A DNA stretch of 64,000 bases, from positions 52,590-116,589 of the forward strand of contig JAIPHX010000001.1 in assembly GCA_021734995.1 (NCBI GenBank), in the 5' to 3' direction. The position numbers and the translations under genes were made by a program. The notes beneath the pieces were generated by a model. The model had not been told where the DNA came from. It was given only the letters and a program-made list of their open reading frames with translations, and did no database searches. The stretch comes from Minisyncoccota bacterium (GTDB lineage: Bacteria; Patescibacteriota; Minisyncoccia; Phycocordibacterales; UBA9973). Below, piece by piece: positions 17,696-41,571 of the stretch (position 1 is its first letter; each line of letters begins with the position of its first letter).

Positions 17696-19423
17696 ATGGA
17701 TACATCAAAAACACCAAAATTTGATAATGCTATAGATAAAATATTAGCAAATCTAAAACCTCACAAAAGAATATGTGAGCAATGTGAAGTAGAGTTTGAA
17801 TTTTTGGATACGGATATTGAATTTTTTAATAAATTTAAGGTTCCACCACCTAGGATGTGTTCAGATTGTCGCAGGCAAAGGAGGTTGGCTTTTGTAAATT
17901 ACACAACTCTTTTTAAGAGAATTTGTAATACACCAACGCATGATGAAAAGATAATTTCTTCAATTCCAGAAGGAACAGAATTTCCAGTTTATGATTTTGA
18001 TTCATATTGGCACGGTGACAGAGATTGGAAAGAATATGGAAAAGATTTTGATTTTAATAAATCTTTTATAAAGCAGTTTAAGGAATTATTTATTAAATCG
18101 CCTCAACCTGCACTTACTCGCAACCCAGAGAGTATTGATAGTGATTATACTTCATATGGGGTTCAACTAAAAAATTGTTATTATGTTTTTGGCGGAATGA
18201 ATGCTGAAAATATTATGTACACTGTCTGGCCTATGATGGTTAAAGATTCTGCAGATTTTCTTATTGCAGTAAACACGGATTTATCGTACGAAGGTGTATA
18301 TCCAGAAAATTGTTATAACTGTAATTTTGTATATTTTTCAAGAGATTGCGTAGATTGTAATTTTACTTTCGATTGCAGGAATTGTAACGACTGCTTTGCT
18401 TGTGTAAATTTGAGAAGTAAAAAATATTGCATTTGGAATAAACAATATTCTAAGGAGGATTACTTTAAAGAAATATCAAAAATTGATTTGGGAGATCAAG
18501 AAACATTAAAAAAATATAAATTAGATTTTATGAGTTTTGTAAAAAAATTACCAGTGAGAGCTACTCGAAATGAACATTCGGAAAATGTATCAGGTAATTA
18601 TCTAATAAATACAAACAATTGTTACAGTACAATGTGGGCAATGAATTCTGAAAATTTAAGTTTTACTGATTTTGTATTAAGATTAAAAGATTCATATGAT
18701 TGTACTGTTTCAGCTGTTGCTGAGAAATTATACAGTACATCAGGTGTCGGGAATAATTGTTTTGATGTAAGGTTTTCTACTTTTGGGAGAGATGTTCGTG
18801 AGTGTGAATATATAATGAATTGTAAAAATTGCACAAATTGTTTTGCTTGCATTGGTCTTGTTAATGCTAAGTTTTGTGTTTTTAATAAACAATATGAAGA
18901 AAGTGAATATTGGAATTTAGTTGATGAAATAAAAACAAAAATGTTAGAAGATAATGAATATGGAGAATTTTTTCCAATGTCAGTAAGCCCCTTCCCTTAT
19001 AATGCCTCTCTTGCAAATATTATTTATCCATCATCTAAAGAAAAAATTCTTAAGTTAAATGGTTGGTGGCATGATGAAGAGTCCGATTTTCCAAAAGGAA
19101 TAGAATTTACAAAAGTTAAAGATATTGAACAAAATATAAAAGATATTTCGGATGTTATTTTAAATAAAGGAATAATAAGCGATAATAATGGTAAACCGTT
19201 TAGAATAACAGAAAGAGAACTTGATTTTTATAAACGTAAGCAAATATCAATTCCAAATATTACTCCATACGAACGTATAATAAATCGCTTTTCTTTTGTT
19301 AATAACTTTAATCTTTTTAAAGATCAGTGTTTCAAATGTAAAACAGAGATTTTGAGTAGCTACGATACAAAAAATGGATTTAAGCCATACTGTGAAAAAT
19401 GTTATCAGCAAGAAGTTTATTAA
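17696..19423 (+). CDS. Cysteine-rich protein family member 1 (575 aa) with N- and C-terminal CxxC...CxxCR zinc-ribbon modules
   Basis: N-terminal CEQCEVEF...FFNKFKVPPPRMCSDCRRQRR; central DCVDCNFTFDCRNCNDCFACVNL...NKQYSKEDY and CKNCTNCFACIGL...NKQYEESEY repeats; C-terminal FYKRKQISIPN...CFKCK...KPYCEKCYQQEVY. Paralogous to the CDS at 32838, 36809 and 38620. Confidence 0.7.
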   Translation: MDTSKTPKFDNAIDKILANLKPHKRICEQCEVEFEFLDTDIEFFNKFKVPPPRMCSDCRRQRRLAFVNYTTLFKRICNTPTHDEKIISSIPEGTEFPVYDFDSYWHGDRDWKEYGKDFDFNKSFIKQFKELFIKSPQPALTRNPESIDSDYTSYGVQLKNCYYVFGGMNAENIMYTVWPMMVKDSADFLIAVNTDLSYEGVYPENCYNCNFVYFSRDCVDCNFTFDCRNCNDCFACVNLRSKKYCIWNKQYSKEDYFKEISKIDLGDQETLKKYKLDFMSFVKKLPVRATRNEHSENVSGNYLINTNNCYSTMWAMNSENLSFTDFVLRLKDSYDCTVSAVAEKLYSTSGVGNNCFDVRFSTFGRDVRECEYIMNCKNCTNCFACIGLVNAKFCVFNKQYEESEYWNLVDEIKTKMLEDNEYGEFFPMSVSPFPYNASLANIIYPSSKEKILKLNGWWHDEESDFPKGIEFTKVKDIEQNIKDISDVILNKGIISDNNGKPFRITERELDFYKRKQISIPNITPYERIINRFSFVNNFNLFKDQCFKCKTEILSSYDTKNGFKPYCEKCYQQEVY

Positions 19424-19467
19424 ATTTAAATAAAATAAAAAATAGAGCTACTTGCAGGGTCTTTCGT

Positions 19468-19579
19468 GGTTTTGCCTGCTGGCAAAACATCGCTCCGGCT
19501 TTCTTCATCTCACCACCATCCCAACACAAGACGCTTTGCCCCCGAGAGCATAAATGCTCTCAGATGCAAATCGTTGCGG
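19468..19579 (+). repeat. 112-bp GC-rich repeat element, copy 1
   Basis: ggttttgcctgctggcaaaacatcgctccgg...gagagcataaatgctctcagatgcaaatcgttgcgg. Identical (one mismatch) to 21644..21755 and contains internal hairpins. Confidence 0.6.
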
Positions 19580-19643
19580 GCCATGTGGATTCAGTCCCAG
19601 AGCGGTAAGGCACCATAAGGGTTGCTCAGTAAATTTTCAGAGT

Positions 19644-20654
19644 CTAAACTGAGGCCTGTGGGACTGTTGCCTTTTTACAAACCAGTAACATGCAAGGGTA
19701 TTTGTTGTTCTTTCTATCGAGAAAATATTCTGTTTGATCTACAACTGTTAAATTATTTTCCTTAAGTAAAGCATCTATCCACCCTTTCTTGTAATAATGG
19801 TAATAATTTTCTGGATCCCCAACACCCACATGATCTTCGTTTCCAGTCTCACCATATTCGTATATGGGCACAACATAATCTCCTTTTAGTTTTTCTGTAT
19901 CCTCCACAGAAATCATAAAACAAAGTTGGCCATCATTTGAGATCATTGATGACATATCCCGAATAAAAGTGTGCATCCCTTCAGGATTAAAGTATGTTGC
20001 AACACCGATAGAAATTATGTTTTTAGGATTAAGATTTCTAAATTTCTTCGGAATACCTTTTTGTAAATCAGAAACAACAAGTTCTTGGTATGTCTCTTTT
20101 ACCACATTATTCTTTAACATCTGTGGAGATATGTCTGTCCCGAATAGTTTTATATTCTTACCTTCTTTTTGGGTTGCTTCAACCAGAATTTTTGCGGAAA
20201 GACCGGTCCCTGTACCTAAATCGAGAACAATATCGCCATCTGAAAGTTCAGCTGTTATAAGAGAAATTTTTTCGGAAAAAACTTTGAGAGAATTATCCTC
20301 TTCAAGAGCCCCATTGCTGTATTGTTCTCCTACTTCGTTTGAAGTCCAGTAATTATTCAATTCTTCCAAGCGTTCAGAGGACTTGGTCTGGATAAGTTCA
20401 AGTATGCAATTTTTTGATTCACTTCCGAGAATACCTTTCTGGCTTAATCCTTCCAGTATTTGAGGTACTTTTCTTTTTAGTTGCTGAGGCAAATTAAGCT
20501 TTAATGTACCTAAAATAAAACGGTATGCGTCCTCACCTTCAGGTGTTTGCAGTAATTCAGTCCTTGCCTCTCGTATTTGTAATTCTTGAGCGGCTAGAGC
20601 TGTCTCTGATGTAGGTTTTATTATAGGTGGTTGTTGTGCGGGTTTAAAAGTCAT
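19644..20654 (-). CDS. Class I SAM-dependent methyltransferase (336 aa) with an extra N-terminal domain
   Basis: Motif I VLDLGTGTGLSA, post-I acidic residue (FGTDIS), Rossmann-fold order. Confidence 0.7.
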   Translation of the reverse strand: MTFKPAQQPPIIKPTSETALAAQELQIREARTELLQTPEGEDAYRFILGTLKLNLPQQLKRKVPQILEGLSQKGILGSESKNCILELIQTKSSERLEELNNYWTSNEVGEQYSNGALEEDNSLKVFSEKISLITAELSDGDIVLDLGTGTGLSAKILVEATQKEGKNIKLFGTDISPQMLKNNVVKETYQELVVSDLQKGIPKKFRNLNPKNIISIGVATYFNPEGMHTFIRDMSSMISNDGQLCFMISVEDTEKLKGDYVVPIYEYGETGNEDHVGVGDPENYYHYYKKGWIDALLKENNLTVVDQTEYFLDRKNNKYPCMLLVCKKATVPQASV

Positions 20655-20709
20655 ATATCTATTCTAGCTTACTAATCCCGATTTGGGTAATCAGGCATTC
20701 GGGTCGGGC

Positions 20710-21507
20710 TTACTTTGTTGCAACAACAATCATATCTTCGGCATTTTCAGAATACTCACCACCCTCCCATCCAGAATAAGTAACTACTGAAGAAAATCCT
20801 ACTTTCCTACACATTTCTTCAAATTCTTCCTTTGTGTAAACTCGAACAGAGTAATCTTTTCTTTCTTCTTTACCATTGCTTTGAATAATCCATGCTCCGT
20901 TAATTCTTTTTGTTTGAGGATCGTATGAATCAATGATTCTGAGAGTTTTTCCTGTGAGAAGATTACGTTGTTCATCCTCTTTATATTTTCCTGACAGAAT
21001 TCTCGGTACATTCACATCAGTGTGCATTAAAAATTTTCCGCCAGGTTTTAGTGCATTAAAGAAATTTTTTAGCACTTTTTCATTTTCCTCATCTGTGTCA
21101 AAAAAGCCAAATGAGTAGAACATATTGATAACACCATCAAACCTTGAGGAGTATTGCAGGTCGAGCATGCTTTCCTTGCTGAAAGTTATATTGAGCGAAT
21201 ATGCTTTCACAGCATCGATCGCCTTTTGCAAATGAACAGAATTGATATCTGAGCCTACCACTTCAAATCCTTGTCGAGCAAGTTCGATGCTATGTCTGCC
21301 GTATCCGCATGGGCAATCAAGAACGCTAGCACCATCTTTTAAGGACAAGAGCTTAACTACTCCAACTACTTCAGTTACAGTTCTTTCTTTTAAACTCTGC
21401 TTCTTTTCAATAAGGTATCCTTCTTGTGATGCGTCTCCATCCATATAAAAATTACCGAAGAAACCATATTCTTCTGACCACCATGGATTTTTTGCGTCTT
21501 GAGGCAT
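20710..21507 (-). CDS. Class I SAM-dependent methyltransferase (265 aa)
   Basis: Motif I VLDCPCGYGRHS, motif II/III (GVINMFYSFGF ... LKPGGKFLM). Confidence 0.7.
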   Translation of the reverse strand: MPQDAKNPWWSEEYGFFGNFYMDGDASQEGYLIEKKQSLKERTVTEVVGVVKLLSLKDGASVLDCPCGYGRHSIELARQGFEVVGSDINSVHLQKAIDAVKAYSLNITFSKESMLDLQYSSRFDGVINMFYSFGFFDTDEENEKVLKNFFNALKPGGKFLMHTDVNVPRILSGKYKEDEQRNLLTGKTLRIIDSYDPQTKRINGAWIIQSNGKEERKDYSVRVYTKEEFEEMCRKVGFSSVVTYSGWEGGEYSENAEDMIVVATK

Positions 21508-21569
21508 ATAGATATTTTAACTTAATTCAAACAATTTAGCAACTCGGGTCATCCGATACTCTATTTTTT

Positions 21570-21591
21570 GTTGCGGAGGCGGTGAGATTCG
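21570..21591 (-). other. 22-nt duplicate of the tRNA-Ser 3' end (att-like fragment)
   Basis: gttgcggaggcggtgagattcg is identical to 21749..21770 inside tRNA-Ser and diverges afterwards. Confidence 0.5.
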
Positions 21592-21643
21592 GTCACAGAT
21601 AATTTCTTCGCCGTCGCTCAGAAATTTCTGCGACCCCGCCTCG

Positions 21644-21755
21644 CGGTTTTGCCTGCTGGCAAAACATCGCTCCGGCTTTCTTCATCTCACCACCATCCCA
21701 ACACAAGACGCTTTGCCCCCGAGAGCATAAATGCTCTCAGATGTAAATCGTTGCG
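21644..21755 (+). repeat. 112-bp GC-rich repeat element, copy 2, abutting and overlapping the 3' end of tRNA-Ser by 3 nt
   Basis: Same sequence as 19468..19579 with one c/t difference. Confidence 0.6.
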
Positions 21756-21837
21756 GAGGCGGTGAGATTCGAACTCACGGTGCCTTTCGACACTCCTGTT
21801 TTCAAGACAGGTGCACTAAACCACTATGCGACGCCTC
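21753..21837 (-). tRNA. tRNA-Ser (anticodon TGA), class II with a long variable arm
   Basis: Reverse complement GGAGGCG-TC-GCA..TGC-A-CCTGT-CTTGAAA-ACAGG-AGTGTCGAAAGGCACC-GTGAG-TTCGAAT-CTCAC-CGCCTCC-G, with discriminator G. Confidence 0.8.
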
Positions 21838-21847
21838 CAATATTATT

Positions 21848-22096
21848 TTATTGCCATCCAGATTTTTTAAAAACATCTAAGAAGGCTTTTTTTGCTTGTG
21901 CTGGTGTTTTCTTAACAACAAGGAAAATATAGACTATCTCTATAATAGCTAAAAAGTTAACCACCATAAATATAGCAAACCATATCTTTTCCTTACGGTT
22001 AACTGCCAACCACACAGCATATGCTTTCCATGGCAACATCCAAACAACAGCCAAAAAAGAAATCAATGTTTTATTTTCTATTAAAAAACTTTCCAT
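21848..22096 (-). CDS. Small (82 aa) two-TM membrane protein, hypothetical
   Basis: Two hydrophobic helices; no recognisable motif. Confidence 0.4.
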   Translation of the reverse strand: MESFLIENKTLISFLAVVWMLPWKAYAVWLAVNRKEKIWFAIFMVVNFLAIIEIVYIFLVVKKTPAQAKKAFLDVFKKSGWQ

Positions 22097-22183
22097 TCGG
22101 CTATCATAGCAAAAAAAGCTCTTTTTCGCTAGTGCTTGCCGATAGCTATCTTGGTATTCATATCTGTGTTAATATCACTATAT

Positions 22184-22624
22184 ATGTATAGGTATTTAGG
22201 AATAGACTATGGAACAAAAAGAATTGGACTCGCTATTTCTGATGAAGAAGCACAGTTTGCCTTTCCAGAGAAGATTTTGTTGAACAACAACAGCACTATT
22301 GATGAAATTGAAAAGATTATAAAACAAAAAAATATTTCTGCTTTTGTAATAGGGGAGTCTTTAAATTTAAAAGGAGAACAAAATGCAGTTTACAATGATA
22401 TTGTACGATTTGGTGACTTGCTCAAGTCTAGATTTGAGCTTCCTGTCTATCAAGAAAAAGAATTTATGACTTCTGTCTTTGCTAGAAGTTCTACTGATCA
22501 AAAAAAAGATTTTAATAAAAGTCAAAAGCATAGTAGAGTAGAGAAGAAAAGATCACCAAAAGCAGATGCTAGTGCTGCTGCTTTGATTTTACAAAGATAT
22601 TTAGATAGAATGAATACAAAATGA
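22184..22624 (+). CDS. ruvX: Holliday junction resolvase-like protein RuvX/YqgF
   Basis: YLGIDYGTKRIGLAISDEEAQFAFP motif. Start trimmed to the internal Met; the ORF-track start at 22136 adds a hydrophobic leader. Confidence 0.7.
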   Translation: MYRYLGIDYGTKRIGLAISDEEAQFAFPEKILLNNNSTIDEIEKIIKQKNISAFVIGESLNLKGEQNAVYNDIVRFGDLLKSRFELPVYQEKEFMTSVFARSSTDQKKDFNKSQKHSRVEKKRSPKADASAAALILQRYLDRMNTK

Positions 22625-22950
22625 TTACCATTGATGATTTTAAAAAAATAGAAATAGTAGTAGGGAAGATATTGTCTGCTGAAAAGATAGAAGATACAGA
22701 CAAGCTTTTGAAATTGTCTGTAGATTTAGGAGAAGAAAGTCCAAGACAAATAGTCTCTGGTATTGCATTGTATTATCCAGATCCTGCTGTGCTAGTAAAT
22801 AAAAAATGTATGTTTGTGGCCAATCTTGAGCCAAGAGTTATTAGAGGACACGAGAGTAATGGAATGATTTTTGCTCTCTCTACGGAAGATGGAAAGTTTT
22901 CTTTACTTGAACCAAGCGCAGAAATACCACAAGGGACCAAAGCAAAGTAG
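22621..22950 (+). CDS. tRNA-binding domain protein (CsaA/Trbp111-like OB-fold, as in MetRS C-terminal domains)
   Basis: FKKIEIVVGKILSAEKIEDTDKLLKLSVDLGEESPRQIVSGIALYY is typical of the tRNA-binding-arm domain. Confidence 0.65.
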   Translation: MITIDDFKKIEIVVGKILSAEKIEDTDKLLKLSVDLGEESPRQIVSGIALYYPDPAVLVNKKCMFVANLEPRVIRGHESNGMIFALSTEDGKFSLLEPSAEIPQGTKAK

Positions 22951-31564: not shown

Positions 31565-32707
31565 ATGAAAATTCCAATAGTGGATGAAAATGATAATATT
31601 ATAGAATATAGAGAAAGAGATAATCGTGATTTAAATGCTATTTATCGTGTTTCTTCTTTGTGGATTACTGATACTGATGGAAATATTTTACTTGCTCGTC
31701 GTGCTTTTAATAAAAGCCATGACCCTGGTAAATGGGGTCCTGCAGTAGCTGGAACGGTTGAGGAAGGAGAAACTTATGAGCAGAATATAATAAAAGAAGC
31801 AGAAGAAGAAATAGGATTAAAGGATATCAAGCCTATTGTTGGGATTAAAAAACGTAGAAATGCTAAGTGGAATTATTTCGTTCAATATTTTCTACTAACC
31901 CTACCGGTAGGATTTAATAATTTCAAAATTCAAGAAGATGAAGTTGCCGAAATTAAATGGTTTCCTGAAGAAAAACTAAGAAAAGAATTAAAAGAAAATC
32001 CAGATGAGTTTCGAAAAGGTATTCATGAGAGAATGAATGAATCTATTAAACATGTAATAATTTTTTCTCATGGATTTGGAACTCGGAAAGACGATCGTGG
32101 ACTTTTTACTGATATTGCAGAGGGGTTTCCTGGAACAGAATCCATACTTTTTGACTATAATAGTGTTGATGAAACAGAGAATACTCTAACTGCTTGTTTA
32201 TTATCTGAGCAAGCAAGAATGTTAAATGATGTAATTGAAAAAGCATATATAGATAATCCAGAGGCAACGATAGATATTATTGGTCATTCACAGGGATGCT
32301 TGGCGGTGTCTCTTGCAAAACCACAAGGAATTCATAGAACTATTTTTGTTGCACCTTCTTTAGATACAGACATAGAGCATACAATTGAGATGTTTAAGGA
32401 GCGGGCAGGAACAGAGATAAATTTATCTGGTATATCAAGGCTGGCACGTAAAGATGGAACTGTTACGTTGGTCCCTGCTCTGTTTTGGGTAGAAAGAAAA
32501 CAATCTGATCCAATTTCTTTATATAATGAATTATCCAACAAAACTGATTTAATCATTATAAATGCAAAGCAAGATGAAATATTTGGCCATACAAATACTC
32601 AAGGATTAGATAAAAAAATTGAGATTATAAATATTGATGGGAACCATCAGTTTTCAGGGGAATCAAGACAAGTATTGATAGATAAAATAAAGATATTACT
32701 AGAATAG
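31565..32707 (+). CDS. Fusion protein: N-terminal Nudix hydrolase and C-terminal alpha/beta-hydrolase
   Basis: Nudix box GTVEEGETYEQNIIKEAEEEIGL; alpha/beta-hydrolase nucleophile elbow IIGHSQGCLAV, and HGFGT near the domain start. Confidence 0.65.
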   Translation: MKIPIVDENDNIIEYRERDNRDLNAIYRVSSLWITDTDGNILLARRAFNKSHDPGKWGPAVAGTVEEGETYEQNIIKEAEEEIGLKDIKPIVGIKKRRNAKWNYFVQYFLLTLPVGFNNFKIQEDEVAEIKWFPEEKLRKELKENPDEFRKGIHERMNESIKHVIIFSHGFGTRKDDRGLFTDIAEGFPGTESILFDYNSVDETENTLTACLLSEQARMLNDVIEKAYIDNPEATIDIIGHSQGCLAVSLAKPQGIHRTIFVAPSLDTDIEHTIEMFKERAGTEINLSGISRLARKDGTVTLVPALFWVERKQSDPISLYNELSNKTDLIIINAKQDEIFGHTNTQGLDKKIEIINIDGNHQFSGESRQVLIDKIKILLE

Positions 32708-32837: not shown

Positions 32838-34565
32838 ATGACTCCAGAAATAAAGAACTGCCAGAACTGCAAAAAAGACTTCACTATTGAGATAGATGAC
32901 TTTTCTTTTTATGAAAAAATAAAGGTTCCGCCTCCGACTTGGTGTTCAACATGTAGATTTCTCCGAAGAGCAGTTTTTAGAAATGAAAGAAAACTTTTTC
33001 GAACTATTAATGCAGTTACAGAGAAACCAACACTCTCTATTTACCCTGCAGAATCTGGATACACCATATATGATGATAATTATTGGGGAAGTGATAATTG
33101 GGACCCTTTTTCTTATGGAAGAGATTTTGACCGTTCGAGACCTTTCTTAGCTCAACTTTTTGAGCTGAATCAAGAAATTCCACACCCTCGCGTTAGTACA
33201 CTTAATATGATTAGAAGTGAATACTCTGCAAACGCTGTTGATCTTAAGGATTGTTATTTGCTTTTTAATTCTAATAACTCAGAAAATTCAGCATATGGTA
33301 ATGGTATAGATTTTTCGAACAATTGCTTTGATACTTCTCACATTAAACAATCAGAAAGATGTTATGAATCTTTCTGGCTTACCAAATGTTACGAAACGTT
33401 CTTTTCTTCTCAGTGTGAGAATTGTGTATCAGTTTGGTTTTCTAAAAATTGTCAAGGTTGTACAAATTGCTTTGGGTGTGTAAATTTAGTGAATCAATCA
33501 TATTGTTATTTTAATAAACAACTATCGAAGGAAGAATATTTATTAACAATAAAAGAATTGGAGCTTGAGAAATTCTCTAATTTAGAAAAGATTCAAAAAG
33601 AAAGTAGGGAATTCTGGCTTAAATTTCCAGTGAAGTATTTTACTGGAATGAAAAACGTTTTTTCTTCAGGAGAATATATTACTCATTCAAAAAACGTTCG
33701 TAAAAGTTTTCTTGTGAGAGAGGGTGAAGATTTAAAGTATGTGCAGTACTCCCAAGTGGGTTATTTGCGTGATGTGATGGATGTGACTGTTGTTGCAAAA
33801 AGTGAAATTGTTTATGAATCAAGTATCTCTGGCTGGGACTCAGCTCAGCTTAAGTTTTGTTGGGAATGTTGGGATGGAGGAATTGATTTCGAGTACAGTA
33901 TGTTTTGTGGGAGAGGAGCAAGTCATATTTTTGGTTCAGTTGCCATAAGTAGTGGAGAGTATATTATTCTCAATAAACGTTACTCTAAAGAAAATTTTTT
34001 TAAACTTCGAGATGAAATAAAGCAACACATGAATGAAATGCCATATATCGATAATCAGGGTCGTGTATATAAGTATGGAGAATTTTTTCCACCCGAGTTT
34101 AGTCCTTTTGCTTATAATGACACTATAGCCCCCGAGCACTTTCCTTTTTCAAAAGAAGAAATATTATCTTTTGGCGCAAAATGGTACGAAGTTCCAAAAG
34201 GAGAGTATGGAACAACCATAGGTGCGAGAGAGTTACCCGATAATATTGATGATGTAAAATCTGATCTTCTTGAAGAAGTTATATCTTGTGCTGACTGCAA
34301 AAGAGGATATAGAATAATTTCTTTTGAACTAGATTTTTTAAAAAATCACAAAATTCCCATACCTAGATATTGTGTTGATTGTCGTTACAAAAAAAGAATT
34401 TCTCAGAGAAACAAAAATATTTTTTATAATAGATCATGCATGTGTACAAATGAAGAGCATTTTCATGGAGTAAATAAGTGTCAAATTGAATTTGAAACGA
34501 GTTACTCCCCAGAAAGACCCGAGATAGTGTATTGTGAATCTTGCTATCAGAAGGAGGTTTATTGA
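32838..34565 (+). CDS. Cysteine-rich protein family member 2 (575 aa)
   Basis: N-terminal CQNCKKDFTIEIDDFSFYEKIKVPPPTWCSTCRFLRRAVFRNER; central CENCVSVWFSKNCQGCTNCFGCVNL; YGEFFPPEFSPFAYNDTIAPEHFP; C-terminal CADCKRGY...FLKNHKIPIPRYCVDCRYKKR...PEIVYCESCYQKEVY. Confidence 0.7.
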   Translation: MTPEIKNCQNCKKDFTIEIDDFSFYEKIKVPPPTWCSTCRFLRRAVFRNERKLFRTINAVTEKPTLSIYPAESGYTIYDDNYWGSDNWDPFSYGRDFDRSRPFLAQLFELNQEIPHPRVSTLNMIRSEYSANAVDLKDCYLLFNSNNSENSAYGNGIDFSNNCFDTSHIKQSERCYESFWLTKCYETFFSSQCENCVSVWFSKNCQGCTNCFGCVNLVNQSYCYFNKQLSKEEYLLTIKELELEKFSNLEKIQKESREFWLKFPVKYFTGMKNVFSSGEYITHSKNVRKSFLVREGEDLKYVQYSQVGYLRDVMDVTVVAKSEIVYESSISGWDSAQLKFCWECWDGGIDFEYSMFCGRGASHIFGSVAISSGEYIILNKRYSKENFFKLRDEIKQHMNEMPYIDNQGRVYKYGEFFPPEFSPFAYNDTIAPEHFPFSKEEILSFGAKWYEVPKGEYGTTIGARELPDNIDDVKSDLLEEVISCADCKRGYRIISFELDFLKNHKIPIPRYCVDCRYKKRISQRNKNIFYNRSCMCTNEEHFHGVNKCQIEFETSYSPERPEIVYCESCYQKEVY

Positions 34566-35326: not shown

Positions 35327-36787
35327 ATGACAGGACAAGAGGGCTTACCAATTAAAATTAAAGTACCAGAGGCTAATTTGCCTAACGTAGAGGGGTTAAA
35401 GGCTGAAGGGTTATCAAAACCCAAGCTAGATGTTCCTGGCATTATTCAAGCAAATGATGCAAAAATTGCAGAGTTAGGTGCTGTAGCAAAGACTACTGGG
35501 GAAAAAATAGAAGGGCTAAGAGCTCAATTGGGGCTAGATCCAAATTCAAATCCAAACCTAGAAGTTCCACCTAGTATCGCTTACATACAAGAAAAAAGAA
35601 GAGAATTAGAAGAAAAAAATAAAAAGCTGTTGGCTGGATCTCCTAATCAGCAAGGGGTAGAACAAGGGGTAGCAGAACAAGGGATAACAGAAGCGGGTCA
35701 AGCGGGGGAAAAAGGAATGGGAGAAGTTCCTGCAGGAAAACCACGCGAAGATTTACCTGAAAATCCTGAAAACTCTGAAAATGCCCAAAAGCCAGAAGCT
35801 CCAGAAGAAGCCCCTAAGCAAGAGCCGTCACAAGATCAAGAAAAAAATAAAAATCCTGAAGAAAAAGAAGATGAAATATCAAAAGAGGTAATAGAAAGAT
35901 TGTCTGCAGTAATGCAAGCAAAAAAAGCACTGGAAGCAAGGGTGGCAGGACTCAAAGACTCACCAGCTTTTAAAGCCTTTGAAGCAAAAAACAAAGACTT
36001 AGATGAAAAAAGAAAAAAACTAGAAGGTCTAAAGAATACTATAAACAATGGAGGAGGAGGAAGCGGGGGAGGAGTTACTTCATTAGAGGGCTCAATATCA
36101 TTTAGTGGTGCTGTCGATTCAACATCAGGGCAAGAGGATTTACAAAATGGCGAGGCTTCTCCTGAGAAAAGTGCAGTTGATTTAGAACAAGAAGTAGAAA
36201 ATTTAATAAAGAGAACTGAACTTGAAGTTTTAAAATTAGAAAAAGAAGAGATGGAATTTGGGGAAGATGGTTTGCAGATAAAGGCAAAAGAAATGGATCT
36301 TGAAGAAAAAGCTATTGAAACTGAAACAGAAATATGGAGTGCTGGTGGTATGAACCAAGAAACTTTCAACAAAACGTTGCAAAATATCAATAATTCTGAA
36401 TTTGACCAAAGTACCATTAAAAATCGAGACACCTTTGTAAGATTTATGTTGGCTGAAAACGAAATGGAATCTTTTAAACAAGAAAATAATGATTATTATC
36501 AAAGCTTGGAAGTAAAGCAAACAGAAATAGAATCAAAAGAATCTGAGTTGGAAGGAGTAGAATATCCAAATGAAAATAAAATTATAGGGATTTTAGCAGA
36601 GCATGCTATTGAAAAAGAAGAAGGAGAAGAAGGACCAAAAAATCTTGATGGTGAAAAAATAGCTGAGACAGCTGGAGCAGAAAAACCTCCTTCCGATAAT
36701 GGGATAGAAACAAGCGACCCCGCTCAGAATATGGATATTCCTATTGTTGCTGGGGGTGAAAAAAATCCTGGTGAAGTTTATAAATAA
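35327..36787 (+). CDS. Hypothetical acidic, low-complexity/coiled-coil protein (486 aa)
   Basis: Glu/Lys/Pro-rich, PE(N/A)PE repeats, a Gly stretch NGGGGSGGGV, and no TM segment. Confidence 0.45.
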   Translation: MTGQEGLPIKIKVPEANLPNVEGLKAEGLSKPKLDVPGIIQANDAKIAELGAVAKTTGEKIEGLRAQLGLDPNSNPNLEVPPSIAYIQEKRRELEEKNKKLLAGSPNQQGVEQGVAEQGITEAGQAGEKGMGEVPAGKPREDLPENPENSENAQKPEAPEEAPKQEPSQDQEKNKNPEEKEDEISKEVIERLSAVMQAKKALEARVAGLKDSPAFKAFEAKNKDLDEKRKKLEGLKNTINNGGGGSGGGVTSLEGSISFSGAVDSTSGQEDLQNGEASPEKSAVDLEQEVENLIKRTELEVLKLEKEEMEFGEDGLQIKAKEMDLEEKAIETETEIWSAGGMNQETFNKTLQNINNSEFDQSTIKNRDTFVRFMLAENEMESFKQENNDYYQSLEVKQTEIESKESELEGVEYPNENKIIGILAEHAIEKEEGEEGPKNLDGEKIAETAGAEKPPSDNGIETSDPAQNMDIPIVAGGEKNPGEVYK

Positions 36788-36808: not shown

Positions 36809-38509
36809 ATGAAGACAAACTGCCAGAACTGCAAAAAAGACTTCGATATTACAAAAAACGACTTGGGATTTTATGAAAAAATAAAGGTTCCGTCTCCGAC
36901 TTTTTGTCCTGAATGTAGAATGATACGAAGGATGGCTTGGAGAAACGAAAGGCATTTGCACAAAAATAAATGTGATATTTGTAAAGAAAATATAATCTCA
37001 ATATACAGCGAGGATTCCCCATATAAAGTTTTATGTGGCTCTTGTTTCCATGGAGATGCATGGAATCCTTTTGATTATGAGATGGAAATAGATTTTTCAA
37101 AACCTTTTTTACAACAGGTAAAAGAATTACAGTTAAAAGTGCCAAGACTATATTCTTTTGTTTTCCAAAATACAAATAGTGAATACACAAACGGGGCAGC
37201 TTTCAATAAAAATTGTTATCTTATTTTTGTGAGTGACTACGATGAAGATTGTGCATATTGTTACTCTACTACTAATTCCAAAAATTCCCTTGATCTTTTT
37301 AATTCTACTGAAAATGAATTGTGTTATGACTCTTCTTCTTGTGTGAAGTGTTTTGCTGTTTCTTTTTCTGAAGATTGTGCCTCTTCCCAAAATTTAATTT
37401 TTTGTAAAAATTGCAATAATTGCAGTGACTGTATTGGATGTGTAAATTTGAGAAATAAAAAGCATTGTTTGTTTAATGAGCAACTAACAGAAGAAGAATA
37501 CAAACAAAAAAAGAAAGAGTTAAATCTTGAAAATAGGGAAAGTTTGAAATCATTAGAAAAACAAGCGCGAGAAGTTTGGAGTAAATATCCATTGAAATAT
37601 ATACATGGTTTAAAAAACATAGATGTCATGGGGGATTACACAAATAATTCCAAAAACTCTAGTTTTGTTTTTGATTCAAACTCAGTGGAAGATTCTAAAT
37701 TTTTAAATTTTGGTAGTAAAATAAAAGATTCGCAAGATGCGTATGTTTTAGTGGATGGTTCAGAATTATGTAATGAGATTGTAAGTGGTATTACTTTAAG
37801 CAACGCGAAATGTAGCTATTGTGTTTGGGTTGGATTTAATATTTCATATTCTGATACTTGCGAAAATTCCAATAATTTATTTGGCTGTGTGGGAGTTAGA
37901 AAAGGAGAATATTGCATTTTGAATAAAAAGTATTCCAAAGAAGAATATGAGCAACTTGTAGAAAAAATTATAAAACATATGAATGATATGCCTTATGTAG
38001 ATGAAAAAGGGATTGTGTATAAATATGGTGAATTTTTCCCCATAGATTTAAGTCCTTTTTCTTATAACGAAACTATCGCTCAAGAATATTTTCCCTTAGA
38101 AGAAAAGGAAGCTTTAGAAAAAGGATATAGATGGATGAAGAAAAAAGAAAGAGATTATAAAATAGAGATAAAAAGCGAAGAAATTCCACAAGAGATAGAA
38201 GGTGTAGGGGAAGATATTGTAAATAAAGTAATAGAATGTGCTCACAAGGGGGATTGTAATCATCAATGCACGGAAGCTTTTAGAATAAGGAAATCCGATT
38301 TTGATTTTTATAAAAGATTAAAATTGCCATTGCCAGATTTATGTCCAAATTGTAGGCATACAAAAAGATTTAAAACTCATAATCCTCTTCAGTTTTGGGA
38401 AAGAGGGTGCATGAACAAAGGGTGTCAAAATAAATTTAAAACAACATATTCCCCAGATCGACCAGAAGTGGTGTATTGTGAATCTTGCTATCAGAAGGAG
38501 GTGTATTGA
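36809..38509 (+). CDS. Cysteine-rich protein family member 3 (566 aa)
   Basis: N-terminal CQNCKKDFDITKNDLGFYEKIKVPSPTFCPECRMIRRMAWRNER; central CKNCNNCSDCIGCVNL; YGEFFPIDLSPFSYNETIAQEYFP; C-terminal FYKRLKLPLPDLCPNCRHTKR...PEVVYCESCYQKEVY. Confidence 0.7.
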   Translation: MKTNCQNCKKDFDITKNDLGFYEKIKVPSPTFCPECRMIRRMAWRNERHLHKNKCDICKENIISIYSEDSPYKVLCGSCFHGDAWNPFDYEMEIDFSKPFLQQVKELQLKVPRLYSFVFQNTNSEYTNGAAFNKNCYLIFVSDYDEDCAYCYSTTNSKNSLDLFNSTENELCYDSSSCVKCFAVSFSEDCASSQNLIFCKNCNNCSDCIGCVNLRNKKHCLFNEQLTEEEYKQKKKELNLENRESLKSLEKQAREVWSKYPLKYIHGLKNIDVMGDYTNNSKNSSFVFDSNSVEDSKFLNFGSKIKDSQDAYVLVDGSELCNEIVSGITLSNAKCSYCVWVGFNISYSDTCENSNNLFGCVGVRKGEYCILNKKYSKEEYEQLVEKIIKHMNDMPYVDEKGIVYKYGEFFPIDLSPFSYNETIAQEYFPLEEKEALEKGYRWMKKKERDYKIEIKSEEIPQEIEGVGEDIVNKVIECAHKGDCNHQCTEAFRIRKSDFDFYKRLKLPLPDLCPNCRHTKRFKTHNPLQFWERGCMNKGCQNKFKTTYSPDRPEVVYCESCYQKEVY

Positions 38510-38619: not shown

Positions 38620-40281
38620 ATGGAGAAGACTTGTAAAAGATGCCTGCAGACTTTTGTAGTGGATAGCCTTGAGTTAAATTTGTCTCAAAAAATGAATATT
38701 CCTGTGACTCATTCATGCCCTGATTGTCGTTTTAAACTTAGAAACGTTTGGCGAAATGAGATGAACTTATATTCAGGAGTAAAGTGCGGGCTATGTGATA
38801 AGAGTATCATTTCTATGTATAACCCTAAACATGGGTATGTAATTTATTGTAACAGTTGTTATGAATCAGATAGTTGGGATAAAAAATCTTATTTTGTAAA
38901 TTATGATGAAAATCGTCCTTTTTTTGATCAGTTCCAAGAGCTTTTCAAAAAGACACCAAAAGCTTCTTTGTATATATCCAAAGCTTCAGGGATAAATCTA
39001 AATAGTGATTATGTAAATTATGCAGGAGGAATTAAAAATTGTTATTTTATTTTCAATGGAGGACCAGCAGAAGACTCTATGTATTCTAGAGGAGTGGTAT
39101 TTTCTAAAGATTCTTCTGATTCATATTTTGGGATGAATGTTGATAGGTGTTATGAATGTGTAAATATTTTTAATTCTTCAGGAGTATTCTGGGGGATAAA
39201 TGTTAATAATTGCTTGGATAGTATGTTTTTAATGGATTGCAGTGGATTGACTAATTGTTTTGGTTGTGTGAATTTAAGAATGAAAAGTTATTGTTGGTTT
39301 AATGAACAACTTTCCAGAAGTGAATACGAAGAAAGATTAAAGACTGTGCAAGGGAGTTATACAAAAATGCAGGCAGAATATTTAAAGTTTCAAGAGTTTG
39401 CATTAAAATTTCCAAATAGAGAAAACCACAATTTAAAAGTTCAAAATTGTCGGGGGGACTATCTGATGGAATGTAAAAATGTTGTTAATTCTTTTGAAAT
39501 TGCTTCTTCAGAAAATGTTATGTTTGCTTTTTCAGCTAAAAAACTAAAAGATTCTCTTGGGGTAGTTGGCTTTGGGTTTAATTCCGAGTCTCTTTTTGAT
39601 TGTGCTGCAGTAGGATATTCAAGCAATGTGATTGGTTCTGTTATTGTTGAAAATTCACAAAATATCTTGAATAGTTTTTCTTTGTATGGATGTAGTGATT
39701 GTATTGGTTGTGCTAGTTTAAAAAATGGTAAATTTTGTATTTTAAATAAAGAGTATAGAGAAGAAGAATATAATAAAATAAAAGAAAAGATTATCCAAGA
39801 ACTAAAAGAGAAAGAATTATATGGTTATATGATACCTTCAGAGATTTCTCCGTTTGGCTACAATGAATCTATTGTCATGGATAATGCTCCATTAAATGAA
39901 ACAGAGGTCTTGGCTTTTGGCTGTAGGTGGGAAGAAGACTTACAAAAAACAGAAGGGAAGGAAACTATTAAAACAGAAGATATCCCTGATAATATAGAGG
40001 AAGTAAATGAATCTTTTCTAAAAGAGATTTGTGTTTGCTTTGATTGTAAAAGAAATTACAAGCTAACCTCTCAGGAATTTTCTTTTTATAAAAAAATGAA
40101 GTTACCAATACCACGAAAGTGTTTTTATTGTCGACACAAAGATAGATTACAAAAAAGAGGTCCATATAAATTTTGGGACAGGGATTGTGCTAAGTGTGGT
40201 AAAAGTATCAGCACCAATTATGATTTAAATAGACCTGAGATTGTGTATTGTGAAAGTTGTTACCAAAAGGAGGTGTATTAG
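38620..40281 (+). CDS. Cysteine-rich protein family member 4 (553 aa)
   Basis: N-terminal CKRCLQTF...CPDCRFKLRNVWRNE; central DCSGLTNCFGCVNL and CSDCIGCASL; ISPFGYNESI; C-terminal CFDCKRNY...FYKKMKLPIPRKCFYCRHKDR...PEIVYCESCYQKEVY. Confidence 0.7.
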   Translation: MEKTCKRCLQTFVVDSLELNLSQKMNIPVTHSCPDCRFKLRNVWRNEMNLYSGVKCGLCDKSIISMYNPKHGYVIYCNSCYESDSWDKKSYFVNYDENRPFFDQFQELFKKTPKASLYISKASGINLNSDYVNYAGGIKNCYFIFNGGPAEDSMYSRGVVFSKDSSDSYFGMNVDRCYECVNIFNSSGVFWGINVNNCLDSMFLMDCSGLTNCFGCVNLRMKSYCWFNEQLSRSEYEERLKTVQGSYTKMQAEYLKFQEFALKFPNRENHNLKVQNCRGDYLMECKNVVNSFEIASSENVMFAFSAKKLKDSLGVVGFGFNSESLFDCAAVGYSSNVIGSVIVENSQNILNSFSLYGCSDCIGCASLKNGKFCILNKEYREEEYNKIKEKIIQELKEKELYGYMIPSEISPFGYNESIVMDNAPLNETEVLAFGCRWEEDLQKTEGKETIKTEDIPDNIEEVNESFLKEICVCFDCKRNYKLTSQEFSFYKKMKLPIPRKCFYCRHKDRLQKRGPYKFWDRDCAKCGKSISTNYDLNRPEIVYCESCYQKEVY

Positions 40282-40338: not shown

Positions 40339-41571
40339 TTGTCTATGAATTTAGAAAATCCAAAAAAATTACATCCTGATGGTGTTGAACAGCCTAAAAA
40401 AGTATTAATGGATCCTAAAAAAGATCCTATTGCTGGGAATATGGCAGTTGATGTTGCTGTTCAGAATATTGTTGTTGAACAGATGGGGGTTATTAGAGAT
40501 AAATTAGGGATGCCACCAATTACAGAAATACCACCATCTATACAAGACCAAGCAAATTTATTTTTGGACCAAATTAAAGATAAGGAATTTGATTATATGT
40601 TTCAAAACCCCAATGGAGAAGATACTCCTGAAGAGTATGTTACTACTTTAAAAAATGGTGTTGTTCAACAGTATTTGGATCAAAATAAAGATTTTCAAGA
40701 TTTAAAACCTTTATTGCAAAATGTATACAGGGGCAATTATGCTATTCAAGCATCTAATATTTTTTTTAATAACCCTTTAAATACTGAGAAGTTAAAAAAG
40801 ATTTTAGATTCTTTAATAAAAAATGAAGATAAAAAGTTTTCTGCTATAAAAAATGATGAGACTCTTAAATTATTAAAAAAAAGAGTGGCTAGCTCTAGTA
40901 GGGATTCAGCAGAAAAAGATGGAGTTGAATATTATTCCAAGACAAATCAAACGAGAGAGTTTTTTGCTGACGGTAGGAAAAGTGATTCATATTCTTATGT
41001 TTCAATGATGTTTGGTTTACTTAACAATTTTTCAACAACTGATTTGGGTAAGAAATATATCCATGAGAAAATTGATAATAAAACAATTTTTTTATTTGGT
41101 GGCGGTGATTCTGTTAGAGATTTATTAAATTCAGAAGAGTTTAAACCAAATAAAATACTTAATTTCGATCCTTTTTTAGAAAAAGAAGATCTCAATAAAA
41201 ATCAAAATGGTATTTATGAATCCTATCCAATATCAGCTTCAAATGAAAATATTAAAATAATGGTAGAAAAAGAAGTTATTCCGCAAGCTGATGAGGTGTG
41301 GGCTACATATTCGGTACCATTTTATTTAGATTCTGCCGAAGATATAAAAAAATTAATAAAAAATATGGCTTCAATTATACGAGAAGGAGGGAATGCTCGT
41401 ATTTCTCCGATAGCCGTTCAAAACAAAGATAAAGAAGGGGATACATTTGAAACACGAAAAAAAGCATTAATGGAGGCTATTCAAGATTTGTTAAATGACC
41501 CTAAATTTAATGTGGTTGTTTTCGGTGACACTATTAAGATTCATAAAATTAAAAAAGAAGTTTCTTCTTAA
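40339..41571 (+). CDS. Hypothetical protein (410 aa)
   Basis: Long ORF co-directional with the Cys-rich cluster; no recognisable motifs; hydrophilic. Confidence 0.45.
   Translation: MSMNLENPKKLHPDGVEQPKKVLMDPKKDPIAGNMAVDVAVQNIVVEQMGVIRDKLGMPPITEIPPSIQDQANLFLDQIKDKEFDYMFQNPNGEDTPEEYVTTLKNGVVQQYLDQNKDFQDLKPLLQNVYRGNYAIQASNIFFNNPLNTEKLKKILDSLIKNEDKKFSAIKNDETLKLLKKRVASSSRDSAEKDGVEYYSKTNQTREFFADGRKSDSYSYVSMMFGLLNNFSTTDLGKKYIHEKIDNKTIFLFGGGDSVRDLLNSEEFKPNKILNFDPFLEKEDLNKNQNGIYESYPISASNENIKIMVEKEVIPQADEVWATYSVPFYLDSAEDIKKLIKNMASIIREGGNARISPIAVQNKDKEGDTFETRKKALMEAIQDLLNDPKFNVVVFGDTIKIHKIKKEVSS

Follow-up and report, generated by a model that had tools for sequence, protein, structure and literature searches.

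Here, we analyzed a stretch of 64,000 nucleotides (nt) from a Minisyncoccota bacterium (Patescibacteriota; assembly GCA_021734995.1, contig JAIPHX010000001.1, positions 52,590 to 116,589), referred to below as the window, which encodes four paralogs of a cysteine-rich protein family (copies 1 to 4; see the table). Copy 1, which stands apart from the cluster formed by the other three, probably belongs, as a functional and cytoplasmic member, to an old, distinct orthogroup of a family restricted to Patescibacteria, rather than being a recent dispersed duplicate.

The encoded protein matches NCBI record MCF7833755.1 (K9L98_00295) exactly, where it is annotated as "hypothetical protein". When compared with a 92%-identical ortholog in L086 (L numbers designate loci from other genomes), copy 1 has a ratio of non-synonymous to synonymous substitutions (dN/dS) of 0.105 at a dS of 0.34. 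Because the open reading frame (ORF) is intact and dN/dS is low, we consider the gene functional: by these measures, it is a real, intact gene kept under purifying selection. Promoter and terminator scans around it gave results at chance level. BLASTP aligns copy 1 over its full length with copies 2-4 at 30-31% identity (E 1e-75 to 1e-80), whereas these three share 33-41% among themselves. The window holds exactly four members and zero fragments (tblastn), and a gap of 13.4 kb separates copy 1 from the next. A first-pass annotation, made by a model from the letters of the window, had described copy 1 as a fourth member of the family, lying outside the main cluster and the most divergent of all, and this description holds.

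The age of the paralogs can be read from their relatives. Copies 1, 3 and 4 served as queries against ~5.8 billion protein clusters, and each recovered hundreds to thousands of full-length matches (2,331 for copy 1). All 360 of the 360 listed matches, the top 120 per query, were nearest to their own query, with a median identity of 45-55% to that copy vs 30-39% to the remaining window copies. Orthologs specific to each of the window copies, 45-68% identical, exist in many Patescibacteria; for copy 1, orthologs elsewhere are 40-92% identical. In a neighbor-joining tree of 290 members, copy 1 falls into an exclusive clade made up of 58 sequences, which come from 54 loci or proteins; this clade branches off before copies 2-4 separate and has a bootstrap support of 175/200 in a reduced data set. 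Its subclades track lineages, with about one gene per genome. The phylogeny that the first-pass annotation had proposed as a check thus places copy 1 in a separate clade, a result that speaks for an old orthogroup and against expansion. The 54 fetched loci with at least two members (223 genes) tell the same story: the highest identity within a locus is 69%, a pair exceeds 60% in only one locus, and for 199 of the 223 members, some gene of another genome is closer than any gene of their own array. None of the genomes sampled through these loci shows a recent duplication. Judged by these comparisons, the duplications behind the four copies are older than the divergence of many Patescibacteria lineages.

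The position of copy 1 is less stable than the gene itself. Six relatives (L020, L023, L026, L027, L031, L055) have the gene backbone of the window, tRNAs included, in the order tRNA-Arg(gcg), w12566, a variable interval, tRNA-Ser(tga, minus strand), DUF5652, YqgF, a tRNA-binding gene, w22985, tRNA-Val/Arg, w24261, w25572 and tRNA-Leu. In L020, L026, L027 and L031, YqgF and the tRNA-binding gene enclose a gene of the copy-1 clade, alone or together with one other member; in L023, such a gene comes just after both. In these five more distant relatives, the copy 1 ortholog is thus found ~0-2 kb across tRNA-Ser, on the YqgF side. In the window, the two enclosing genes overlap each other, and 2.7 kb separate them from copy 1, which is on the opposite side of tRNA-Ser. 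The comparison of synteny suggested by the first-pass annotation therefore finds the orthologs near YqgF but not at the same site, and the relatives carry an ortholog together with many other copies, not the single ortholog without further copies that it had named as the contrary case. Because the orthologs of these relatives sit just across tRNA-Ser near YqgF, we conclude that copy 1 kept its old neighborhood but was relocated, and we prefer a local move within that neighborhood over a re-import into a hot spot.

Such a hot spot appears to exist on the 3' side of tRNA-Ser. From w12566 to the 3' end of tRNA-Ser (window 13094-21752), no gene is shared between any of the window, L020, L026, L027, L031 and L055; the interval of the window holds a PyrF-PyrE-type fusion, two unknown proteins, an energy-coupling factor (ECF) S-component-like protein, copy 1 and two methyltransferases. 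Positions vary in other genomes as well. Of 43 copy-1-clade genes, 27 adjoin another family member and 16 are solitary. Single family genes are located between w3502 and w4716 in L069 (10004-11722) and L078 (10001-11740), and between w6859 and w12566 in L055 (5803-7524), and the backbone genes at these insertion sites are adjacent or overlapping in the window. In our reading, the family genes are old while their positions turn over, that is, they relocate without duplication.

An alternative that we take seriously, while holding it to be clearly the less probable, is that copy 1, although an old gene, came to the tRNA-Ser hot spot as cargo of an inserted segment that was mobile or prone to recombination, through a horizontal or intragenomic transfer of a cassette, its nearness to YqgF being a side effect of the hot spot and not retained ancestry. 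This would account for its place in an interval without genes common to the relatives and for the single family genes at differing backbone sites in L055, L069 and L078. It also fits L086, L087 and L088 (85-91% nucleotide identity), which have only the gene and ~50-65 bp upstream in common with the window, with flanks that all differ: L086 has perfect 30-nt terminal inverted repeats (1-30 and 1883-1912), L087 a 24-nt direct repeat bracketing the gene (1-24 and 2234-2257), and L088 the C-terminal part of a large serine recombinase (1-636; PF07508 and PF13408) 65 bp upstream of the gene. These contexts could reflect cassette-like mobility or assembly breaks at variable sites, and short Logan contigs may simply break where strains vary. 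In the window, however, copy 1 has no recombinase, no flanking repeats and no flanking inverted repeats, and the repeats of L086 and L087 are absent; it also argues against a role as cargo that groups within the copy-1 clade track lineages at about one gene per genome, and that viral contigs contain no family members. The window does not contain the genes that neighbor the closest orthologs on long contigs (DnaE, RNase HII, TraG-like ATPases, DnaJ/K).

Far less credible is the proposal of the first-pass annotation that the family is actively expanding, with copy 1 as a recently dispersed duplicate of the cluster. Dispersed and tandem copies do occur together in the window, and copy number varies from 1 to 16 per locus between genomes. 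Yet copy 1 is closer to its orthologs elsewhere than to the cluster, belongs to a clade recovered in most bootstrap replicates and is under purifying selection, and active expansion is not supported because no recent duplication and no young pair of paralogs is seen here or in any other genome sampled. A dispersed copy of a tandem family is, in this case, no evidence of ongoing expansion. The annotation was right that the family does not stem from a single local duplication.

The family as a whole is large. Its matches carry labels such as Paceibacterota, Nomura-, Kuenen-, Giovannoni-, Sung-, Staskawicz-, Yanofsky- and Liptonbacteria. When 1.84 billion representatives were searched with a profile, 2,425 clusters were retrieved at E<=1e-30 (~2,400 family clusters, at a clustering identity of 50%), the best 150 matches all measuring 527-612 amino acids (aa) and aligning end to end. 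A genome scan confirmed at least 506 loci in lineages of the Paceibacteria type and of the Peregrinibacteria/Gracilibacteria type. Other genomes carry the family in co-directional, often overlapping tandem arrays of up to 16 members: L041 and L051 have 11 members each within 21 kb, and L043 and L077, which overlap on contig JALLOO010000001.1 of a Patescibacteria single-amplified genome, together give an array of 16 co-directional members (positions 1-28964), all <60% identical to each other.

Known families offer no counterpart. The family core has no match in Pfam or NCBIfam; searches of the PDB gave no match by sequence and, by profile, no more than a marginal similarity of the C-terminus to LIM zinc fingers (E>=0.008); Foldseek found nothing at E<=0.001 in the PDB or in BFVD; and no description of the family was found in the searchable literature. 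Copies 1 and 3 have no match in PADLOC, and we rejected an anti-phage defense system on this ground; a phage origin was discarded as well, since these copies have no meaningful match in PHROGs and the viral contigs of IMG/VR contain no relative of the family. By the reach of these searches, the family is restricted to Patescibacteria, with a ~400-aa core that belongs to no described family. Length-uniform and rich in Cys, it lacks a description in Pfam, NCBIfam, the PDB and the literature, while up to 16 ancient, non-redundant paralogs are kept in genomes of roughly 1 Mb, where they take up ~3% of coding capacity in one case.

Copy 1 has a modular layout. The canonical architecture, seen in copy 3, begins with two ribbons (CxxC...CPxCRxxRR, then CxxC...CxxCY), continues with a core of ladder 1 plus helix, ladder 2 plus helix and a conserved YGEFFP..SPF.YNE linker, and ends with two further ribbons, the last closing in CExCYQxEVY. 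The copy-1 orthogroup retains both ladders and has lost one ribbon at each end. Its signatures are an N-terminal extension that is conserved in the orthogroup alignment (A2) and absent from copies 2-4, C77..H82 in place of the second ribbon, and GKPFRI..TPYxRIxxRF in place of the first C-terminal ribbon. Copy 1 thus lacks the second N-terminal ribbon of copies 3 and 4, of which C77 and H82 alone are still conserved; copies 2-4 possess a first C-terminal ribbon whose Cys are lost throughout the orthogroup, with the invariant R527 and R531 retained. In a 121-sequence family alignment (A1), the invariant positions, all present in copy 1, are C27/C30/C55/C58, C545/C548/C566/C569, N248, G300, N397, G423, R527 and R531.

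The two ladder domains end in the motifs 227-CRNCNDCFACVNL-239 (nt 18374-18412) and 376-CKNCTNCFACIGL-388 (nt 18821-18859), the two well-preserved CxxCxxCFxC(V/I)xL modules that the first-pass annotation had rightly pointed out; the second is intact in copy 1 only, among the four window copies. The domains are 35% identical to each other (E 6e-26), indicating an internal duplication. Cys make up 4.7-6.4% of residues and follow a strict 3-residue period of occupancy in the ladders. Copy 1 contains 12 CxxC pairs vs 1.3 expected (~9-fold enrichment), with a maximum of 7 in 2000 shuffles. Across the family, ladder Cys are 8-87% conserved, except C233 and C385, and whole ladders are degenerate in copies 2-4. 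AlphaFold2 predicts the ladders to be narrow solenoids of very short strands (copy 1: predicted local distance difference test, pLDDT, 87.3, predicted template modeling score, pTM, 0.90; copy 3: pLDDT 90.2, pTM 0.87), and the model of copy 3 has a clear 12-residue strand period at pLDDT 90-95.

The C-terminal module has relatives outside the family. Orthologs and paralogs match PF23477 (zf_Tbcl_2, probable treble clef zinc finger) or PF13451; in ortholog P0027, residues 537-569, homologous in position to the finger of copy 1, score 31.1 bits against PF23477 (cutoff 27). Copy 1 itself has no Pfam match at E<=1 and does not reach the gathering threshold of PF23477. Its membership is by homology only, with the ligand spacing CxxC-x17-CxxC present, and its finger is accordingly labeled putative here. 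Zinc binding by this domain class has been demonstrated for small proteins of M. mazei by inductively coupled plasma mass spectrometry (PMC12704099). None of 252 family members has a transmembrane-like or signal-like segment, which is why we consider the family proteins cytoplasmic.

To learn what surrounds the family, we clustered all non-family ORFs in the fetched loci. The dominant neighbor is a TraG/VirD4-like P-loop ATPase, which occurs in 27 of 82 loci, is co-directional with the family genes and lies at a median distance of 128 bp from one of them. Typically, a long ATPase (620-850 aa) is followed by 1 to ~10 family genes and a short ATPase (~485 aa); arrays bracketed in this way include L001, L011, L014, L024, L025, L029, L033, L034, L037, L040-L042, L056 and L084. 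The ATPases match TrwB_AAD_bind, T4SS-DNA_transf, TraG-D_C and DUF87, and the long form carries a PF23477 finger directly after the ATPase domain (~residue 450-480). Walker A starts at residue 35-69 in 32 of 36 ATPases, and none of the 36 has an N-terminal hydrophobic segment, suggesting that they are soluble, unlike canonical coupling proteins. Other recurring neighbors are TrmB-like regulators (10 loci) and PaaX/Cas2-like proteins (8 loci). In eight loci of the Peregrinibacteria/Peribacteria type (L049, L057, L058, L061, L064, L067, L068, L076), TrmB-like regulators stand divergently beside the family arrays, and the ATPases have a ~300-aa N-terminal extension that places Walker A at ~residue 340. 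The ATPase link is guilt by association at the level of the family and not a property of the copy 1 locus.

These features suggest a working mechanism. The terminal CxxC modules would bind zinc, and the conserved terminal Arg, kept even where the Cys are lost, may contact a polyanion or a partner. The solenoids would act as rigid, zinc-stabilized scaffolds whose Arg-rich terminal fingers dock onto nucleic acid and/or onto soluble TraG/VirD4-like hexameric ATPases carrying the same finger. The array paralogs are co-directional and often translationally coupled; ancient and non-redundant, they may differ in specificity, assemble into a hetero-oligomer, or be alternative adaptors or clients for the ATPase. 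We propose with some hesitation that the proteins are zinc-stabilized solenoid scaffolds working with TraG/VirD4-like ATPases. It is a similarly tentative idea that the family and the soluble, zinc-finger-bearing ATPases make up an undescribed, Patescibacteria-specific cytoplasmic machine; in one possible form, a coupling-protein motor put to a new use (exapted) would drive a hetero-oligomeric solenoid scaffold or client set, perhaps to handle nucleic acids. A 2025 survey of 2,918 Patescibacteria genomes counted 5,713 VirD4 homologs, of which only 148 lie near virB4, and left their function open (PMC12102498). If the machine exists, it would account for the role of most of these ~5,700 "orphan" VirD4 homologs, and copy 1 would be its oldest, near-single-copy subunit type.

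Several points weigh against our account of copy 1 and its family. The phylogeny is a neighbor-joining tree on Kimura distances only, the reduced bootstrap set does not return the clades of copies 2 and 3 as exact splits, and the sampling consists of 80 genome loci and top-hit lists. Three close relatives show three different flanks, one with a serine recombinase, which would be compatible with import on a mobile segment. Finally, the window itself has no TraG/VirD4-like ATPase, and an ATPase lies within 10 kb in only about a third of the loci.

Other functions have been weighed against the scaffold that we propose. The adjacency to ATPases resembles the usual linkage of a coupling protein with its substrate, the family members lack a signal peptide, and multi-paralog arrays recall the VirB2 pilin arrays (PMC12102498); the proteins could thus be exported substrates or effectors of a Patescibacteria type IV secretion system (T4SS), recruited by the neighboring VirD4-like coupling proteins. 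We find this unlikely: true coupling proteins have a membrane anchor, which is missing from the linked ATPases, VirD4 homologs are mostly not near virB4 (PMC12102498), the paralogs are strongly conserved and uniform in length rather than diversifying, and multiple zinc-bound modules would resist unfolding for export.

A metal-centered role is also rather doubtful. Here, the proteins would be iron-sulfur (Fe-S) or redox proteins, or a store of zinc or other metals, with the CxxCxxCxxC ladders as functional sites and an incidental ATPase linkage. The enrichment in CxxC, the strict Cys period and the high Cys content described above are what such a role predicts, but the ladder Cys are only partially conserved outside C233 and C385 and the ladders degenerate in copies 2-4, so that a structural role fits them better than a catalytic one; moreover, neither Pfam nor NCBIfam yields a match to an Fe-S family, and we do not favor an Fe-S role. 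A left-handed beta-helix (hexapeptide) acyltransferase or gamma-carbonic-anhydrase-like enzyme, suggested by the top Foldseek matches in the PDB (GlmU, LpxA/D, gamma-carbonic anhydrase) and thus by weak local 3Di similarity, is effectively rejected, because these matches have E >= 0.015 and TM <= 0.10, there is no Hexapep or other Pfam/NCBIfam match and no hexapeptide motif, no invariant His or other catalytic constellation is present, and the coil length differs, with a strand period of 12 residues and not 18.

Copy 1 is followed by a 116-nt direct repeat, R1, and two methyltransferase genes. The first-pass annotation had correctly noted the presence of R1 beside copy 1; it had put the repeat at 112 nt and the spacing at 45 bp, where we find 116 nt and 40 bp. 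Its two convergent S-adenosylmethionine (SAM) methyltransferases are borne out: both genes are of class I and lie on the minus strand, both exceed the thresholds of Pfam Methyltransf_25/31/11, and the NCBI names concur. They are generic small-molecule methyltransferases and not DNA methyltransferases. R1 exists in two copies only, 98% identical, and the 2,061 bp between them contain the two methyltransferase genes only; no integrase or recombinase is encoded there. R1a is preceded, on the minus strand, by a degraded T-arm/acceptor-like (tRNA 3'-end-like) stretch. No homologs of the methyltransferases occur in the more than 80 fetched loci, and both are singletons at 90% clustering of ~15 billion proteins. 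The segment between the R1 copies has a GC content of 0.378 vs a window mean of 0.340, a modest deviation that ranks it among the top 4.5% of segments of the same size. R1 as such gave few leads: Rfam matches only its tRNA edge, its RNA fold is no better than that of shuffles (z -0.82), and an R1 24-mer is absent from the fetched loci, the metagenome collection and the viral collection. A match to the Rfam family sX4 (29 bits, cutoff 70) overlaps the tRNA and was set aside as chance.

Since the R1 copies flank cargo, copies of the tRNA 3' end are present and the methyltransferases are absent from the other loci, R1 and the methyltransferases are best read as an attachment-site (att)-type duplication around a small, lineage-specific and integrase-less islet at tRNA-Ser. 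Both are later than copy 1 and functionally unconnected to it, and their proximity is coincidental. By itself, then, the finding for copy 1 is ordinary, an old paralog beside an unrelated islet.

The remaining neighborhood offers further observations. The PyrF-PyrE-type fusion mentioned above is a 500-aa ORF (window 13177-14679) with the look of joined orotidine monophosphate (OMP) decarboxylase and phosphoribosyltransferase domains. Two Cys-free ORFs (35327-36787 and 40339-41571) are interleaved with, and follow, the cluster of copies 2-4; they encode 486 aa (highly acidic, low complexity) and 410 aa, and have no Pfam match and no homolog in any fetched locus. Immediately upstream of copy 2 lies a NUDIX + alpha/beta-hydrolase fusion (31565-32707), and L015, L019 and L028 have NUDIX homologs as well, ~2 kb upstream of their genes of the copy-1 clade. 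In L001, a bAvd and reverse transcriptase pair that resembles a diversity-generating retroelement (18592-20328) is located ~7 kb from the copy 1 ortholog.

Table. Features of the window discussed in the text, with positions counted from its first nucleotide; domain assignments are predictions.
Feature	Positions	Strand	Remarks
Copy 1 ORF	17696..19423	+	ATG start, 575 aa, 28 Cys, C-terminal end ...KPYCEKCYQQEVY
N-terminal extension of copy 1	17696..17761	+	~22 residues, SKTPKFD..ID.IL..L.PH, predicted helix 7-17, pLDDT 89-97
Putative N-terminal zinc ribbon of copy 1	17774..17869	+	C27-xx-C30 ... C55-xx-C58-R, basic tail CRRQRR
Cys-ladder domain 1 of copy 1	18116..18451	+	Residues ~141-252, predicted narrow beta-solenoid, then helix
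Cys-ladder domain 2 of copy 1	18551..18895	+	Residues ~286-400, internal duplicate of domain 1
Putative C-terminal zinc finger of copy 1	19328..19402	+	C545-xx-C548-x17-C566-xx-C569, treble-clef type
Copy 2	32838..34565	+	575 aa, paralog
Copy 3	36809..38509	+	566 aa, paralog, all four terminal ribbons, AlphaFold2 pLDDT 90.2
Copy 4	38620..40281	+	553 aa, paralog
R1a	19464..19579		116-nt direct repeat, GC 0.53, starts 40 bp after the copy 1 stop codon
Methyltransferase gene	19644-20654	-	Class I SAM, 27.9 bits vs cutoff 27
Methyltransferase gene	20710-21507	-	Class I SAM, 59.3 bits
tRNA-Ser 3'-end copy	21570..21592	-	23 nt, att-like remnant, read from sequence and alignment
R1b	21641..21756		Second R1 copy, abuts the tRNA-Ser 3' end
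tRNA-Ser(TGA)	21753..21838	-	Backbone position conserved in relatives; 3' side hypervariable
Backbone genes	21848..22950		DUF5652 (-), YqgF/RuvX-like (+), tRNA-binding-domain protein (+)

The islet next to copy 1 is reminiscent of tRNA-targeted genomic islets: at tRNA-Ser, cargo genes that the relatives lack, with a modestly raised GC content, are bracketed by repeats and copies of the tRNA 3' end. It differs from them in its lack of an integrase, in a cargo of only 2 kb, and in that the 116-nt R1 lies mostly downstream of the tRNA and not within it.

The proteins themselves have partial likenesses. With its exact spacing, the C-terminal module of copy 1 resembles the proteins of PF23477, PF13451 and the NCBIfam "CxxC-x17-CxxC domain", whose known members are mostly small and single-domain, whereas the fingers of our family cap a ~570-aa protein with a ~400-aa core without family assignment. 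The ladders can be compared, by analogy and not by homology, with Cys-laddered solenoids such as TmAFP (1EZG), the spruce budworm protein (1M8N), the ryegrass ice-binding protein (3ULT) and the curli protein CsgA (8C50). Those are secreted, disulfide-bonded or amyloid-forming single-domain proteins, 4-9% identical to the family, while the family members, predicted to be cytoplasmic, combine two solenoids with zinc fingers and have no ice-binding TxT faces.

The closest parallel in gene organization is with VirD4/TraG coupling-protein loci, where substrate or relaxase genes stand adjacent to the ATPase. The family loci differ from these in that no relaxase or virB genes were seen in them, in that the window has no such ATPase, and in that the linked ATPases are soluble by prediction, with no N-terminal transmembrane segment and with a treble-clef finger. 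They share with them arrays bracketed by ATPases with the TrwB_AAD_bind, T4SS-DNA_transf, TraG-D_C and DUF87 domains, and the family thereby offers a concrete, testable partner for the orphan VirD4/TraG-like ATPases, whose role in these episymbionts recent literature has left open.

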